A stretch of DNA of 51,534 bases from Escherichia phage vB_EcoS_ULIM2 (OQ850291), one strand, 5' to 3'. Positions 2,388 to 32,909 are shown, counted from the first letter of the stretch. Numbers and translations: made by a program. The notes: generated by a model from the letters alone, not told the origin.

Positions 2388-5261
2388 ATGGTTGATAAGG
2401 TAGCAGGTCTGTCGCTTGACGTTGATGTGTCAACAGTGCAGCGCGCAGTCAAGTCACTGAAAGAGTTTTCAAAGGCCAACGACCAGGCCGCTGATTCTAT
2501 GGGTTCTTTAATCAATGAGTCAGAGGTTGCAAAACAGAAGGCCAAAGAACACGCTGAGCAACTTAAGCGCCAGCGCAAAGAGTACGAGGCTGTAGAGAAG
2601 GCAATCGATCCTACAGTATCAAAAATGGAAAGGTTGAAGATTGCATCTCAGCAGCTTGATAAACTCTGGCAGCAGGGAGTCGTTCCAGATGAGACTTTTT
2701 TCCGTTTGGGTGAAATGCTGGATCTGCAAAACGCAAAACTTGCTCGCAGCCGGGCTATGCTTACGGAAGAAGGTCAGGCGGCATTGCAGGAAGCGAAAGC
2801 AAAAGAGCAGGCGGCAGCACGAAGCAAGGCGTTCATGGATGCCCTGAATGGTCAAGTTAACGCGATCGGCAAGACTCATGCTGAATTGATGGAACTGAAA
2901 GCGGCTGAGCTTGGTTTATCGAAAGAAGCAGCACCACTAATCGCAAAACTTAAAGATCAAGGCCGGGCTATGAATGCAGCAGGTATTAGCGCCGGGGAAT
3001 ACAGGCAAGCAATGCGAATGCTTCCTGCACAGATTACCGACGTCGTTACATCACTTGCGTCAGGCATGCCAGTTTGGATGGTTGCCATCCAGCAAGGCGG
3101 TCAAATCAAGGACTCGTTCGGCGGGATCGGTAATACGTTTAAAGTGTTGCTGAGTTATATTAATCCAGTCACAGCAGGGGTTGGCGTTCTCGTTGGCTCG
3201 TTAGGTCTTCTGGCGAAAGCTGGTTATGACTCTTACAAGTCAATAACTGATATTCAGAATGCGCTTATTGAGACTGGCGGTTATGCAGGTGTTACGGCTG
3301 AAGATCTTGATTCAGTGTCTAAAAAGATCGCGCAGACAAGCAACTCAACCATTGGGAGTATTCGCGAGATTGTAACGGAGTTGGCGAGTTCTGGTAAGTA
3401 CACCCGCGAGCAGATCCAGAACATCACTAAGGCGACGGCAGAGTGGTCGGCAGCAACTGGAAAATCAGCAAGCCAAATCATTGCTGAGTTCGACAAAATC
3501 GCAAGCGATCCGGTCAAAGGTCTGGAGAAGTTAAACGAACAATATAACTTCCTTGAAAAAGGTCAACTGACCTATATCGACACGTTAAGCCGGACGAAGG
3601 GTGAAACCGAAGCAGTATCTGAAGCAACGAAATTATTCGCCGACGTAATGGAAAAGCGAATGAAGTCGATCGCGGATAACGCCACACCCCTGGAAAAAAT
3701 GTGGAGCGATATTAAACAATGGGCTTCGGACGCGTGGGGATGGGTTGGAGATCATACACTTGGGGCACTAAACCTGATTATCGACGTTGTTCAGGGTACA
3801 GTGATTCAGGTTAAAATGATTCTTGCGAAGGGTGATGAGTACATCTCAAACTTTATCGCCTCAGCCATAAAGGCAACTCAGTCACTGCCTGGAATGAGTG
3901 ATTTCGGCGCTGATATACTGAAGGAGCAGGAGAATATTGTAAAAAGTTCTCGCGACAACTACGATCAGTTGGCTTCAGAGCTTGATGCTATTAACGCTCG
4001 CGTAGAAAAAGGCGAGATGGGATACGTTGAAGCGATGAAGCAGCGTCGCACTCTTGAAAAGCAGTATAGTGAGGAAACTAAGGAGGCAATAAGGAAAGAA
4101 GCGGAGGAGATCGAGAAGCGAAACCGAGAAAGAAATAAGCAGTCGAAAATTGTCCGCTCGCCGACAGAGCAATTCGACAAGGAGTTAATTTCACTCAAGG
4201 CTCAACTTAAGGTACTGCAGGAGCACAAGGAGATCGGGCAAAAACTTTCTGCCCAGAGAAAGGCGCTGTTTACTACTGAGGCTACGATCGCTGTTCTTCG
4301 CGAAGCTAGTTCTAAGCGTCAGTTGTCTGCGGAAGAAAAAGCGTTGCTGGCAAGTCAGGAGAGAGTTGTAGAACTTGCTAAACAGAAGGCTGAGATTGGC
4401 GATCAGATTGTCAAGCAACAGCAGTTGAACGCACTTACCGACAAGTCACTGAAGTTTGTCAATGAGATGACGGCGGCGACGGAACAGCTTAACGCTTCAC
4501 GCGGTCTTAGCACGCGAGAAATGGAGCGACAAGCGGAATTAGCTAAAATAACCACTGATTATATCAATGCTGGCGGCGGTGAAGGAGACGAAAAACTACA
4601 GAACATGATCAAGGCGCAGAATGATTACTACGCTGCGGAAGATGCCAAACGCGCTGACTGGTTGGCTGGCGCTGAAAGCGCATTCGCTGATTACGGCGAC
4701 TCTGCAATGGATATGTACGGAAACGTTAATGAGATCGCATCAAGTGCTCTAAACGGTATGACGGACATGATGGTTCAGTTCCTCACTACCGGGAAAGCAA
4801 ACTTTGCTGACTTTGCTAAAAATATCATCAGCATGATTATAAAGATGATTGCTCAAATGGTAATCTTCAATACGATCTCAGGAATGATGGGCGGTAAGAC
4901 GTGGAGCTTTGCTGGAGGGGCTTCGTCTGGTGCTTCTGCGGCATCACAGGCAACCCCTGCGCCTGCTGCTTCTGTTTTTAGATCTGTATCTTCCGGCGGG
5001 GTCGCTGTATCACTTGCTGCCGCAGCGGGTAGCGTGGCAACATCTGGATTCAACGCATCAAACTCGGCTCCAAAGGTGGTAAACCATTCAGGAGGTGGAA
5101 CGGTCGTTGACGTTAGCGGAATGGAGGTGAAAGTTGACAACGGTTCAGATCCGAGGGGGATTTCTCATGGTGTAGAAATGATGTTCAAAAAAATGATTCG
5201 TGAGTCTTGTTCGCAGGGCGGCGAGGTTTATAATTACATTCAGGAAAAAACAGGAGGTTAA
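2388..5261 (+). CDS. Tail tape measure protein (957 aa)
   Basis: Largest tail-region ORF; long coiled-coil-like E/K/Q-rich middle and Gly/Ala/Ser-rich C-terminal part; ATG at 2388 with AGGGGG RBS. Confidence 0.8.
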
Positions 5262-14921: not shown

Positions 14922-15347
14922 ATGCATATTATCACTGGCGAGATCCGTAAAGAACCTAAGATTCTTGAGCGTAACGGCGGCAATACTTACATCATTGAGC
15001 TGGCAGAAAGCTACAAACCGCGTGATGGCGATCGTGAATACACCAACTACACATTCTTTTTTAGCGATGGTGGAAAGCATGGCCTTGCTGACTGGTATCG
15101 TGAAGCGTTCCAGGTTGGTCGAGTAATCTCAGTATCGTGCGAGACTTTGAAGATCTCATCAAGAGAGCATAACGGAACGATCTACAATTCTTTGCAGGCG
15201 GCTGATTTCCCTAAGCTGATATTCAGCCAACGAGGCCAAAGCAATCAGCAACAACGAGCACCACAGCAACAGCAGCAGCGCACTCAACATCAGTCACAAC
15301 CTCAACCAAATCCTCAGTCAACATTCGACGACGACATTCCATTCTAA
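14922..15347 (+). CDS. ssb: Single-stranded DNA-binding protein (141 aa)
   Basis: Q/P-rich linker and acidic C-terminal tip DDDIPF, the canonical SSB tail. Confidence 0.8.
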   Translation: MHIITGEIRKEPKILERNGGNTYIIELAESYKPRDGDREYTNYTFFFSDGGKHGLADWYREAFQVGRVISVSCETLKISSREHNGTIYNSLQAADFPKLIFSQRGQSNQQQRAPQQQQQRTQHQSQPQPNPQSTFDDDIPF

Positions 15348-27122: not shown

Positions 27123-28691
27123 TTAACCAATCAGTCGAGGATTGATGAAAACAATATCATCAATTCGGCAAGTGTAGTTCATCTCTTCGAGCGTTATAAG
27201 AAGGCTGTCGATTCTCTCAGCGACCTTCTGTTGCCCGTTGAACGGAGTAACGTTACGACACTTCGCTACAATGCTATGAATCGGTGCGCGGCCTTTGTTC
27301 TTCTTCGCGATCTCAGTGATAACATCAATCAGCTTACGAGATTCAGCCTCATCACCAGCATACCCGGCAGCGCTGGCAGACGACAGATAAGTCCTGGAAA
27401 GCTCATTGAAGATCATGATCGCTTCCTGCATTGTTTCAAGGTCAATCTCGCGATTTGCGCGGTTCGGTGATTCACCCTCCCAATTCTTGATCGTGTGAAG
27501 AACTGAAGCAATACGCAATGCGTGCTTATCGAACTTACCGAGATGACCGCGAAGCATTGAGTGAGAGTATTTCCCCCCAGCGGCGAAATCCGGTTCCATC
27601 GCCTGTCGTGCAAGGTTTAATTCACGCATAGCGTTACGGCTTACAGAGAGAACAACGTTATCCTCCTTCATGATGTTATGCACGAGTCTGTAATATTTGC
27701 TAACCAGTCCGCGATCGACTTCTTTATACAGTGCATCACCATTTTCATCACAAAGAATACGAGTACCTAAAAGCGGTTCCTCACGAACCAGAAGGAAGCG
27801 CTCAGATACACCGATACCGCGCTGGCCTGCGTCCATGATACCCTTGATTGTTTCATCCTGCGCAATGACGCAGATCGAACCGACCGGACACAGAGACAAG
27901 TTATTATCCTGGTTGGAACGCGCGACCTCCATATGGTTTTTATCCCAAGCCTTAAGGATAAGCTCACTGTTAGATTTCTTATCTGAGCCGCCATACGTAA
28001 GCCCGAGCAATGTATTGATTGCCGTTGCCTCGTCAGATATTACGGAAAAGTGACCTTGCACTGCCGCCACTTTCGCAAGACCTTCAGGTGTAGGATCTGA
28101 TACCGCGAAAACAATATCAGCCATCTTCTTGATCTTCTCTTCCAGTTTTTCTTTGTCCTCGTACAGAGCCGCCGTCGTGTTGCCTTTAGGATCGTTTTTT
28201 ATTTCCTTCTCGACCTGACGTAGCTGACTGGTTAAACGGATGCGTTCCTTTTTACGCTCTTCATTCAGTCGCTGAATCTCCGCACGCATAGGTGTAATCG
28301 CCGCTGAGTTAATCGCTGATTTACCTGTTGATGGTGGCTGACTGATTACCATGTAAAGCGCTGTCGGCTGTTCTTCTCCATGATATTGCACCCAAAACTT
28401 CCCGAGCATCGCGGCTGAGATGCAACCGATAAAATGAGCATACGCGGATGAAACCGGGAACTGGACTGATTCAGCTTTTGCTTTTGCATATTCGAATACC
28501 AGGTTATCGCCACCTAACGAAATCAGAGGGAACTTATCGTTTCCGCTGTTGATATCGATCGGATCTTGCCAAAAAGAAACTGAATCCCCATAACTGTTTT
28601 CACGAATTGCGATCGCCACCGGATTAACTCCAGTGCTATTTGCGATCTCAATAATCTGTTGGTAATTCAGTTTTGGCTTAATATTAAACAT
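27123..28691 (-). CDS. P-loop ATPase, possibly DUF3987-like replication-associated protein (522 aa)
   Basis: Walker A-like QPPSTGKSA and Walker B-like FSVISDEAT; ATG at 28691 with AAGGAG RBS. Family assignment is from memory. Confidence 0.45.
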   Translation of the reverse strand: MFNIKPKLNYQQIIEIANSTGVNPVAIAIRENSYGDSVSFWQDPIDINSGNDKFPLISLGGDNLVFEYAKAKAESVQFPVSSAYAHFIGCISAAMLGKFWVQYHGEEQPTALYMVISQPPSTGKSAINSAAITPMRAEIQRLNEERKKERIRLTSQLRQVEKEIKNDPKGNTTAALYEDKEKLEEKIKKMADIVFAVSDPTPEGLAKVAAVQGHFSVISDEATAINTLLGLTYGGSDKKSNSELILKAWDKNHMEVARSNQDNNLSLCPVGSICVIAQDETIKGIMDAGQRGIGVSERFLLVREEPLLGTRILCDENGDALYKEVDRGLVSKYYRLVHNIMKEDNVVLSVSRNAMRELNLARQAMEPDFAAGGKYSHSMLRGHLGKFDKHALRIASVLHTIKNWEGESPNRANREIDLETMQEAIMIFNELSRTYLSSASAAGYAGDEAESRKLIDVITEIAKKNKGRAPIHSIVAKCRNVTPFNGQQKVAERIDSLLITLEEMNYTCRIDDIVFINPRLIG

Positions 28692-28720
28692 CACAATAAA
28701 CTCCTTAGTTGACGGTGTGA

Positions 28721-28763
28721 ATGATACACCGCCAATGGTACACGCGTTTTGCAAAAAGTGCTA
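28721..28763 (-). promoter_or_regulatory. Box-type promoter (leftward) for the ATPase gene
   Basis: Minus strand TAGCAC-N3-TTGCAA (28749-28763), 22 bp, TATCAT (28721-28726). Confidence 0.45.
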
Positions 28764-28767
28764 TTGG

Positions 28768-29184
28768 TTATAAGTATTTGGCCTCAAAGGTTGTGCCGTC
28801 AGCAATACTAAAACCCACCTCTTCGCGGAATAAGGTCCAGCGGCAACCATCCTCATCAAAGATGTAACCAGCCACTCCACCGAGAGCGCGACCGCTTTCC
28901 ACCTGGTAGCGTTTGCCAACTTTGAATGATTTTTTCATTGGGTTGCGATGGTCAAGCCCGGTGCATTTTAGTGTCTTCGTTTTCAGTTCTACGAATGTTG
29001 CATTAAGCGGATTACCCAATGAGTCTTCACCATGTGCGGTCATTTTATCAAGCACATGCCAATGCTTAGGCGCGAACTGAACTGAGATATTACCCCCATC
29101 GTCTATGCGTCCTTTATAAAGTTTGTTTGCTTCAAAGAATAATTTCATGGTGGATGAGGTGCATTTGAGTTTGATACTTTTCAT
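28768..29184 (-). CDS. Hypothetical protein (138 aa)
   Basis: ATG at 29184 preceded by the conserved AACCAATCAGGAGA leader. Confidence 0.5.
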   Translation of the reverse strand: MKSIKLKCTSSTMKLFFEANKLYKGRIDDGGNISVQFAPKHWHVLDKMTAHGEDSLGNPLNATFVELKTKTLKCTGLDHRNPMKKSFKVGKRYQVESGRALGGVAGYIFDEDGCRWTLFREEVGFSIADGTTFEAKYL

Positions 29185-29263
29185 TGAATATCTCCTGATT
29201 GGTTATCTTGAACAAGGCCACTTTAACAAATGACCTTGCGGCAATATTAACAAATCGTGCTAT

Positions 29264-29476
29264 TTACCACGGGATATAATCGTCGTCTAAATCTTCGTTT
29301 TTTGGTTCTTCTGGTAATTCAAAGTCAGGATCAAACTCACTTTCTTCGTCCATATTCATATCACCCAAAGCCTCTTCAAGCGTTATTTCTTTATACGCTA
29401 CCTTGATACACCATTCAGCACTAAGACCAGCATCAAGAGCGCCAAAATAACGAGTCCAGAAATTATCCCGTTCCAT
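29264..29476 (-). CDS. Small highly acidic protein with SSB-tail-like C-terminus (70 aa)
   Basis: ATG at 29476 with GGAG 9 nt upstream, coupled to the upstream gene; C-terminal 35 residues are rich in D/E and end DDDYIPW. Confidence 0.5.
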   Translation of the reverse strand: MERDNFWTRYFGALDAGLSAEWCIKVAYKEITLEEALGDMNMDEESEFDPDFELPEEPKNEDLDDDYIPW

Positions 29477-29480
29477 TAAA

Positions 29481-29705
29481 TTAACTCCATGAATTAATGT
29501 AAATTGAGTTAGCCTCAAGAGTAGCGCGCACATCCGCATCTGTTGCATTTACTAAGCGCGAGCCTGGCGTGCTGCCAATAACGTTATTACCGTTACGAAC
29601 CTTAGTTACCGTCATTGAAACAAAACCGGAAGACTTATCCATTTTGATAACTACACGTCCTTTCGCGTTCAGGTGCTTGATGATATTCTCAGCTTTAATG
29701 CTCAT
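29481..29705 (-). CDS. Hypothetical basic protein (74 aa)
   Basis: ATG at 29705 with AAGGAA RBS downstream of a box-type promoter. Confidence 0.5.
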   Translation of the reverse strand: MSIKAENIIKHLNAKGRVVIKMDKSSGFVSMTVTKVRNGNNVIGSTPGSRLVNATDADVRATLEANSIYINSWS

Positions 29706-31932: not shown

Positions 31933-32019
31933 TTAACCCATCCTTTCAATTACAAGGAGCATTACCCAAACCGCTAAGACTAACTGCATCATCATAGCTA
32001 ACAAAAAGAACTTATTCAT
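31933..32019 (-). CDS. Small hydrophobic membrane peptide (28 aa), not in the ORF track
   Basis: ATG overlaps the TGA of the upstream gene (ATGA); GAGGAA RBS 7 nt upstream; translation MNKFFLLAMMMQLVLAVWVMLLVIERMG. Confidence 0.4.
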   Translation of the reverse strand: MNKFFLLAMMMQLVLAVWVMLLVIERMG

Positions 32020-32831
32020 ACTGATTCCTCACTGGCGAATACCTCGCAAGATTCACTGCATGAGCCTGTGTCGAATGATTTTGCCCCACGAACCCTTGCG
32101 GCTACCTCATCCCTCGACTGTGGAAACATCTGTATAATGTCACCGAGTGAGCGCCTTCCTCTGTACATGTCAGATGAAGACTCTTTCTTGTTGTGCTCAC
32201 TGATTGTGTTAATGAATAGCCTTGCAAGCTCCGGCTCATCCTTACAAGCAAGAGCTAGCTTGAGTTCTGACTTCTTGATGCAGAAAACGCAGTTACCAAG
32301 GTGTTCATCAATCCCAAGATCGAAAGGCATGTCACGCCAGAAGTTGATAACGTCCTGCTTATCAAAGTCAGATATGTCTGCAAGGTAACTGAACCCATCA
32401 GCTGCCTTTAATCTCTTTGGCTCATCCGCACGAATGCCAATCCATCGCTGATAATTACCCTTGCCATACTTCTTCTCGCAATACTTTTCAAATGGCTTAG
32501 TCTTCATCCTGTTTGTACAGAATGCACCTCCCTGGTATGGATTTCCGTACTTCCTTAGCATTCTTATCCACCCAACAAGATCGTGATGAATATCGTCCAC
32601 GCTTACAACTTCGAATGATGGGGTTCCGCGGAACTTATCGCTTGGCAAGCATCTTAAGCAAGTTATACCCCTGGGAATCATTGACGATACATTTCGAATA
32701 AACTCATAAGTCATTGGATGTTCTGCGCCAGTGTCCATGTAAATAACCTCAGCGTCAGGATAAATCTTGAGAACCTCAAGTGTCATGTATGCCGAAGTCC
32801 TGCCACCACTAAAACTAATTACCTGATTCAT
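32016..32831 (-). CDS. PP-loop ATPase of the PAPS-reductase-like family (271 aa)
   Basis: N-terminal ISFSGGRTSAYM PP-loop (SGGxxS) motif; ATG at 32831 with AGGGG RBS; the track ORF (to 32900) runs through its promoter. Confidence 0.55.
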   Translation of the reverse strand: MNQVISFSGGRTSAYMTLEVLKIYPDAEVIYMDTGAEHPMTYEFIRNVSSMIPRGITCLRCLPSDKFRGTPSFEVVSVDDIHHDLVGWIRMLRKYGNPYQGGAFCTNRMKTKPFEKYCEKKYGKGNYQRWIGIRADEPKRLKAADGFSYLADISDFDKQDVINFWRDMPFDLGIDEHLGNCVFCIKKSELKLALACKDEPELARLFINTISEHNKKESSSDMYRGRRSLGDIIQMFPQSRDEVAARVRGAKSFDTGSCSESCEVFASEESV

Positions 32832-32865
32832 TTCGACCCCTATCTGTGAGCTAAATAACAACTGC

Positions 32866-32909
32866 ATAATAGCCAATCCTCCGCTACTGGTCGTTAGCAA
32901 AAAATGCTA
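32866..32909 (-). promoter_or_regulatory. Box-type promoter (leftward) for the PP-loop gene
   Basis: Minus strand TAGCAT-N4-TTGCTA (32895-32909), 23 bp, TATTAT (32866-32871). Confidence 0.45.

Follow-up and report, generated by a model that had tools for sequence, protein, structure and literature searches.

A T1 gene 06-like phage protein with an SSB-like C-terminal tip on a small helical domain, a possible mimic of the SSB tail

Why should a phage that has its own single-strand DNA binding protein (SSB) also encode a 70-residue acidic protein whose last residues resemble the SSB tip? This question is raised by the T1 gene 06 homologue of Escherichia phage vB_EcoS_ULIM2 (OQ850291), which was analysed within the window, i.e. 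the whole stretch of 51,534 nt (features in Table 1). The gene is a minus-strand ORF starting with the ATG at 29476, and its translation is MERDNFWTRYFGALDAGLSAEWCIKVAYKEITLEEALGDMNMDEESEFDPDFELPEEPKNEDLDDDYIPW. Every homologue begins at the Met of this ATG and none at the upstream ATG of a 94-aa ORF. The protein contains 22 D/E and 5 K/R and has a net charge of -17 and a pI of 4.05; its C-terminal 35 residues contain 15 D/E and 1 K/R. The initial annotation had described a 70-aa minus-strand protein ending in DDDYIPW with a strongly acidic last half, and had compared its end with that of the phage SSB, given as TFDDDIPF. The translation obtained here is identical to the earlier one, the residue counts bear out the acidic character, and the SSB gene indeed has this ending together with a match to PHROG 44. 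The protein is 100% identical to 'hypothetical protein Lg3_00073' of Escherichia phage Lg3 (Tunavirus, Drexlerviridae), the Shfl1 homologue carries the annotation 'similar to T1p06', and the copy in T1 itself is locus L009. Moreover, PHROG 9085 is matched over the full length (E = 3.6e-40, residues 1-70 on profile positions 1-69 of 69), and the DNA around the gene shows ~90% identity to 68 Tunavirus records. In phage SA32RD, terminator and promoter features are annotated inside the gene; they were rejected, since they are there because the ORF had gone uncalled.

Table 1. Coordinates of the features in the window (first letter of the stretch = 1)
Feature	Position	Strand	Remarks
Phage SSB, ending STFDDDIPF	14922..15347	+	PHROG 44 single strand DNA binding protein, E = 8.5e-24
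DUF3987 gene, annotated 'DNA helicase', T1 gene 09-like, conserved end of the block	27123..28754	-	PF13148, E = 6.3e-42; PHROG 2373
Downstream gene, T1 gene 07-like, 138 aa, function unknown	28768..29184	-	PHROG 2684; conserved gene order
Stable RNA hairpin between the gene and the T1 gene 07-like gene (79-nt spacer)	29197..29256	-	MFE -22 kcal/mol, z = -4.0, 0/200 shuffles as stable
Gene for the 70-aa protein, T1 gene 06 homologue	29264..29476	-	Stop codon 29264-29266 included
C-terminal tip DDDYIPW, aa 64-70, SSB-tip-like	29267..29287	-	YIPW invariant in Tunavirus-type relatives
Acidic linker, predicted disordered, aa 46-63	29288..29341	-	pLDDT 57-67; includes SE(F/Y)(D/N)P(D/N)F, aa 46-52
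N-terminal domain, aa 1-45	29342..29476	-	Helices aa 6-15, 20-27, 33-37 and conserved ALGDM(D/N)MDxE segment
GGAG ribosome-binding site	29485..29488	-	8 nt upstream of the ATG, within the 3' end of the upstream gene; read from the sequence
Upstream gene, T1 gene 05-like, 74 aa, function unknown	29481..29705	-	PHROG 4344; precedes the gene in most loci

The gene belongs to a block of small genes, in which the order T1p05-like gene, T1p06-like gene, (C5-methyltransferase-like gene), T1p07-like gene and DUF3987 gene is found in Tunavirus, Warwickvirus, Webervirus, Sauletekiovirus and metagenomic relatives. The TAA of the upstream gene (29483-29481) is followed by 4 nt (TTTA) and then by the ATG. 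The proposal in the initial annotation that the two genes are translationally coupled is thus plausible from the 4-nt gap and the GGAG sequence, although the genes do not overlap, and its placement of the gene in an accessory block was half right, since some relatives do lack the gene but the gene order is conserved across Drexlerviridae. The hairpin in the downstream spacer has no U tract after it; it therefore does not qualify as a canonical intrinsic terminator and may be a processing or stability element. The methyltransferase-like gene starts ~10 nt past the stop codon of the T1p06-like gene in the non-Tunavirus genera and is located ~2 kb upstream in Tunavirus. No homologue of the C5-cytosine-methyltransferase-like gene of related Tunavirus was found anywhere in the window; where these phages have it at the head of the small-gene block, the window has a PAPS-reductase-like gene (32016..32900, minus strand; PF01507; PHROG 33262, E = 2e-89). 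The product annotated as 'DNA methyltransferase' beside the small gene in Warwickvirus, Webervirus and Sauletekiovirus gave no Pfam match at E <= 1e-3, and its N-terminus carries an F-x-G-x-G-like motif (L004 4236..4946, L005 ~4230..4922, L006 4232..4939). In tonnikala and IMGroot, the annotated start of the methyltransferase gene overlaps the small gene; the ATG ~10 nt past the small-gene stop, with GAGG before it, looks like the more likely start.

The gene is widely distributed. Using the N-terminal domain (N-domain) of Tunavirus or Webervirus proteins as the query, tblastn retrieved 453-456 phage records, and the Braunvirinae version is present in 101 further ones, which gives a total of >550; for comparison, the neighbouring DUF3987 protein is found in 900 records. 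In Klebsiella phage B1, the T1p05-like, methyltransferase-like, T1p07-like and DUF3987 genes are present and the T1p06-like gene is missing. Furthermore, the T1p05-like and T1p06-like frames are fused in L020 (812..1108, matching Shigella phage vB_SsoS_008, P0062), where the product ends in ...NMDMD, and the gene stops after 28 codons in L028 (3001..3087). These two disruptions are either sequencing errors or natural knock-outs, and knock-outs would fit dispensability. Because it is absent in B1 and apparently disrupted in L020 and L028, the T1p06-like gene is common but dispensable.

The structure of the 70-aa protein was predicted with AlphaFold2 using an alignment of 27 sequences as input. 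The model has a pLDDT of 77-88 over aa 1-30 and three short helices within aa 6-37; past residue 37 there is no secondary structure, with a pLDDT of 57-67 for aa 41-70. According to this prediction, the protein is a small helical domain followed by a flexible acidic tail. The model of the protein alone, three short helices and a disordered tail, agrees with the earlier statement that an OB fold is absent, and neither Pfam nor PHROG profiles gave any SSB match; the 70-aa protein is therefore not an SSB. Searches with the N-domain against Pfam, the PDB and fold collections gave no match. A helix-turn-helix or DNA-binding function of this domain was considered and rejected, since a loose A-x3-G-L pattern was its only basis and the net charge of the domain is negative. 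In the linker there is a second, semi-conserved motif, SE(F/Y)(D/N)P(D/N)F (window 29321..29341, minus strand, aa 46-52), which is kept in Tunavirus and in some of the relatives with linker cysteines (the Cys-type relatives P0102, P0128 and P0065), and the Warwickvirus-type proteins have F-A-D-P-T-M near this position. It may be a second docking motif.

The resemblance of the C-terminus to the SSB tip was then weighed against chance. The window contains 888 six-frame ORFs that are 30 aa or longer, and [ILVMF]P[FW] is the ending of just two of them, the SSB and the 70-aa protein, both of which also have DDD. Chance would produce ~0.7 such endings, a figure calculated from how often the tripeptide occurs across the whole ORF set, in which genes are the minority. 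The SSB of E. coli has the C-terminus ...MDFDDDIPF. Compared with the phage SSB tip DDDIPF, which is also the tip given for E. coli SSB (PMC5872125), DDDYIPW has an inserted Tyr and Trp in place of Phe. IPW directly precedes the stop codon, so the aromatic residue bears the free alpha-carboxylate. The DDD is parted from IPW by the invariant Tyr, and the Cys-type relatives have C-x-(R/E/D)-C at this place. In phage tonnikala, the orthologue of the window SSB ends in DFDDDIPF and the small protein in CARCFPF; no co-variation of the small-protein tip with the phage SSB tip was seen. In common with the C-terminal tails of bacterial and phage SSBs (SSB-Ct), the 70-aa protein has an Ile-Pro-aromatic end at the extreme C-terminus, Asp residues just upstream and a disordered tether. 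It differs from them in having no OB fold or ssDNA-binding domain and in the Tyr between DDD and IPW, and some of its relatives differ further in that the tip follows a Cys4 knuckle or carries one added residue.

The terminal Trp also occurs in SSBs. One genome from each of 185,579 species was scanned for DDDIPW followed directly by a stop codon, which gave 65 matches, not far from the ~50 roughly estimated for random DNA. In at least 10 of these ORFs, the N-terminal domain matches the OB fold of E. coli SSB (E = 1e-6 to 1e-51), and on the basis of these matches IPW is a tip naturally used by SSBs. The SSBs ending in DDDIPW are from Novosphingobium, Methylibium, Hahella, Legionella, Nitrosomonadaceae, Myxococcales, Clostridia and others. 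The same SSB-type tip is seen in non-SSB proteins of the cyanobacterial Microcoleus/Oscillatoriales, which are up to ~540 aa long and end in ...AKWGE(H)xDDDIPW; one of them (L075 91..1632, plus strand) has 513 aa and helicase-like motifs recognised by eye, and the others are from L056, L061, L067, L082, L085, L107 and L112.

Within the close family, the tip is the most constant part of the tail. Y67, I68, P69 and W70 are invariant in all 27 aligned relatives (59-94% identity), and YIPW is present in 65/65 Tunavirus-type cluster representatives. Residues 53-64 show free substitution and indels among the Tunavirus genes, and S46, P50 and F52 are conserved. The tip codons for Tyr (TAT/TAC), Ile (ATT/ATC) and Pro (CCC/CCG/CCT) vary among 15 Tunavirus genes without any change of the amino acid. 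Since this variation is only synonymous, the selection is on the protein and not on the DNA, and as judged from the alignment the tip is under purifying selection at the protein level.

The wider family was collected by a profile search against 1.8 billion representatives at 50% identity, with which a second homology search was in agreement. In both searches, the N-domain is conserved (consensus ...A-x-DAGLN-x-EW-x-x-KVA-x5-L-x2-ALGDMDMD-x-ES), the linker is unalignable across the family, and the tip is terminal. The ending x-P-[F/W] is found in 20 of the 22 small representatives (<50% identity) and in 152 of the 159 small family members retrieved. Exactly IPF is the ending of 11 of the 22, and the others have IPW (3), LPF (2), FPF, VPF, EPF, ISF and IPFW; the Pro at -2 is the sole near-invariant column outside the N-domain. 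The linker is of two types, either acidic (Tunavirus and several minor lineages) or a Cys4 knuckle, C-x-C-x5-C-x2-C, directly before the tip. The tips of the knuckle type, which is that of the largest subfamilies, such as CRECIPF and CARCFPF, have few acidic residues and even an Arg where SSB has Asp. There are also intermediates, for example, P0102 and P0128 carry both SEFDPNF and the knuckle, and P0105 ends in DDDCIPW. The knuckle-less P0064 ends in KFDDGIPF, to be compared with DFDDDIPF in the SSBs of tonnikala and E. coli, and has the same gene order as the block of the 70-aa protein, and P0063 ends in YDDFIPW; from such sequences, the lineages without the knuckle tend to lean to SSB-like acidic tails. 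The tip is kept without any knuckle cysteines in Tunavirus, P0064, P0065, P0081, P0085 and P0093. One residue, which is hydrophobic, is added beyond PF in Webervirus (IPFW, VPFW, VPFL) and Braunvirinae (LPFI). All members of the family are acidic, with net charges of -2 to -20, those of the Cys-knuckle homologues from other genera being -2 to -11. For a Cys-knuckle relative, AlphaFold2 gave a pLDDT of 53-57 for the knuckle and the tip, at which packing onto the N-domain or the knuckle is unreadable. In addition, the N-domain is found inside 160-310-aa proteins of unrelated enterobacterial phages (~157-kb genomes; ViI-like Foldseek matches), where the tip is absent. This occurrence suggests that the partner of the N-domain is not specific to Drexlerviridae.

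The SSB tail offers a model for what such a tip could do. The SSB C-terminal tip is a hub that in E. coli recruits 17 or more proteins of replication, repair and recombination (PMC10018359). Its loss is lethal, and at the site that receives it the terminal Phe enters a hydrophobic pocket, the alpha-carboxyl group meets a basic lip and the Asp residues lie along a basic ridge (PMC10164576). The counterparts in the 70-aa protein are the terminal aromatic residue, the free carboxylate and the upstream Asp residues, all on a disordered tether. Because of these three matching elements on such a tether, we tentatively favour, with confidence slightly short of even, that the protein is a tethered SSB-tip mimic docking on a DNA-metabolism protein, of the host or of the phage, in the pocket that takes the SSB tip. 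It would be a two-part adaptor or decoy, composed of the three-helix N-domain (~45 aa), a flexible acidic tail and a tip imitating the SSB C-terminus. The terminal aromatic residue with its free carboxylate would insert into the SSB-tip pocket of a genome-maintenance protein, which could be a host SSB client or a phage protein that reads the tail of the phage SSB, and the N-domain would be a second contact conferring specificity. The protein would then either compete with SSB for the client, i.e. inhibit, or recruit the client to the ligand of the N-domain. That the tip binds a client, which protein serves as the target and whether the effect is inhibition or recruitment are what we infer here. 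SSB tails are abundant in the cell, and for this reason a protein acting by competition alone would have to be highly expressed or bind with bipartite affinity.

The core idea of the initial annotation, a protein without an OB fold but with an SSB tip, has gained from the near-invariance of the tip, the purifying selection on it, the IPF, LPF and IPW endings below 50% identity, the relative ending in KFDDGIPF and the SSBs ending in DDDIPW, but it sits less easily with the subfamilies that have a Cys4 knuckle or an extra residue. Several points count against the mimic. The tips of the knuckle type have little acidity before them, the small-protein tip does not co-vary with the phage SSB tip, the inserted Tyr shifts the register by one residue relative to DDDIPF, a residue added after PF should displace the Phe carboxylate from the canonical SSB-tip pocket, and a hydrophobic-Pro-aromatic C-terminus is a simple motif that other receptors could fit. 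A more daring form of the proposal, which we hold to be possible without expecting it, is that the T1 gene 06-like proteins are the first stand-alone family of SSB-tip decoys, in which a tethered IPF/IPW-COOH tip and a specificity domain occupy the SSB-docking pocket. The owner of the pocket would then be a particular host genome-maintenance enzyme or a defence sensor reading SSB tails, the host SSB interactome would be rewired early in infection, and the Cys4-knuckle and acidic-linker subfamilies would be two ways to present the same tip.

Among the alternatives, the one that survives best assigns the tip to a phage partner. The hydrophobic-Pro-Phe/Trp C-terminus would anchor the product of another gene of the block (DUF3987, T1p07-like or C5-methyltransferase-like), the likeness to SSB would be coincidental, and the protein would be the small subunit or regulator of this partner. 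The gene order shared by Tunavirus, Warwickvirus, Webervirus, Sauletekiovirus and the metagenomic relatives is in line with this, as is the methyltransferase-like gene following so closely in the non-Tunavirus genera, and tips that have an extra residue or stand beside a zinc knuckle poorly suit the canonical SSB pocket. However, the gene is kept where the methyltransferase-like gene is distant, as in Tunavirus, or absent, as in the window; the N-domain occurs in unrelated large phages; and since B1 keeps the block partners while lacking the T1p06-like gene, these partners function without it. Moreover, the exact IPF ending and the FDDGIPF and DDDYIPW tails are hard to ascribe to chance. We regard a phage partner as unlikely, though it deserves serious attention.

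The Cys4 linker leads to another alternative, in which the protein is a zinc-knuckle mini-protein that binds nucleic acid or is regulatory, the N-domain and the Cys4 are ancestral, the acidic tail of Tunavirus is derived, and PF/PW caps or stabilises the knuckle. The knuckle immediately precedes the tip in most subfamilies, P0086 and P0092 have a fuller zinc ribbon in its place (CPAC-x-HLYF aligned to C-x2-C-IPF), and the intermediates P0102, P0128 and P0105 bridge the two linker types. Against it, the tip survives the complete loss of the cysteines in several lineages, and so its role is independent of the knuckle; the low pLDDT of the knuckle and tip leaves packing on the N-domain unreadable; and the net acidity of every member disfavours nucleic-acid binding. 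Such a mini-protein appears improbable to us.

A further reading takes the protein for a DNA mimic with an anti-restriction or anti-defence function, acting through its negative charge. T7 Ocr, ArdA and T4 Arn are rigid folded mimics of B-DNA. The 70-aa protein is like them in being a small, highly acidic protein from an early or leading region of a phage or plasmid; its charge of -17 in 70 aa, its low pI and its position in a block of small genes, with a DNA methyltransferase-like gene in relatives, would agree with action via negative charge. In contrast to their rigidity, its acidic part is predicted to be disordered, with no rigid charge array, is free to vary in sequence and length, and is not conserved in the family. 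The homologues from other genera have a Cys knuckle instead and charges of only -2 to -11. Mimicry through charge is thus not what the family has conserved; it has kept the N-domain and the tip. In addition, no PADLOC-DB family was matched at E <= 1 by the 70-aa protein, its neighbours or two relatives, and no solved DNA-mimic structure matched the 70-aa protein. The anti-restriction part of the initial annotation is thus not supported, and we consider a DNA mimic very improbable. That the gene is real but unimportant and its SSB-like ending a product of chance would suit its absence from B1 and its apparent disruption in L020 and L028, which indicate that it is dispensable for plaque formation, but this reading is already contradicted by the conservation pattern, with homologues in >550 phage records, protein-level purifying selection on the tip and retention of the tip below 50% identity, and we give it next to no credence.

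The nearest mechanistic precedent for the tethered SSB-tip mimic is found in phage T7. The T7 SSB gp2.5 and the helicase-primase gp4 have acidic C-terminal tails ending in Phe, which use the same basic patch of a replication partner, and gp4 is thus a non-SSB phage protein with the acidic-aromatic tail of the phage SSB. The gp2.5 tail is the subject of a review (PMC10359462). The difference is that the T7 tails belong to a phage-encoded replisome and to large enzymes, whereas the carrier here has 70 aa and no enzymatic domain, and the annotation of the related phage tonnikala includes no DNA polymerase. T1-like phages depend on the host Pol III, and together with the lack of an annotated polymerase this dependence is consistent with the phage SSB retaining a host-type tip. 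Another comparable protein is Bas52_0087, a phage SSB-like protein with the tip FDDDIPF that triggers the DRT10 defence system and whose conserved SSB-type tip is proposed to meet host SSB clients such as exonuclease I (SbcB) (bioRxiv 10.64898/2026.04.29.721553). Bas52_0087 has two predicted OB folds, whereas the 70-aa protein has none and is unrelated in sequence. Full-text searches of the published literature found no description of the T1p06-like family or of any SSB-tip mimic without an OB fold. Docking via an SSB tip is already known; what would be added is such a tip on a phage family without an OB fold for which no published description was found.

If the tethered SSB-tip mimic is correct, a widespread phage family would offer the SSB hub a natural competitor or adaptor that is genetically encoded and built on a non-SSB scaffold, and it would reveal an SSB client that T1-like phages must silence or capture. 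It could also provide a starting point for peptides that block SSB-client interactions, a class of antibacterial target already under pursuit (PMC5872125). Phage SSBs and SSB-like proteins are, moreover, emerging as triggers of defence systems (bioRxiv 10.64898/2026.04.29.721553). If the tip binds a phage protein instead, it would be a new C-terminal docking motif in the replication-module proteins of Drexlerviridae. The proposal would give a testable function to a gene that is annotated as 'hypothetical' in >550 deposited phage genomes.

Beyond its own cluster, the N-domain of the 70-aa protein also matches PHROG 9323 (the Cys-type relatives) and the middle of PHROG 4823 (the larger proteins of the ~157-kb phages); PHROG 9085, 9323 and 4823 are sequence clusters with no assigned function, and membership in them explains nothing about the mechanism. 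The gene contexts of the larger relatives P0086, P0079 and L051 were uninformative, and P0082, a 494-aa repetitive protein from the representative search, was dismissed as a low-complexity match. P0086 (L007 5001..5654, on a 54.6-kb contig) has 217 aa, with the N-domain and a C-terminal zinc-ribbon part (PHROG 3786); its precomputed Pfam hit, PF26833 Phage_Mu_gp6, was not reproduced with the local Pfam copy. In L051-L054, the gene at ~2773..3300 encodes 175-206 aa (PHROG 4823) with the N-domain in the centre and no PF tip, and these proteins have a distinct conserved acidic C-terminal part, ...ECEDDPEDDGFDPDLHGGEDDNTPPLEILMAGG...WLDSRL; one neighbour at these loci has an ART-PolyVal ADP-ribosyltransferase domain. 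The version of the Braunvirinae (Rtp/C119-like; L121 3271..3450) is a divergent protein of 59 aa, MKIDKDELRNECALIGLNEDY...CCDGLGCVECLPFI, in which the ALGDMDMD segment is missing and PF is followed by one last residue.
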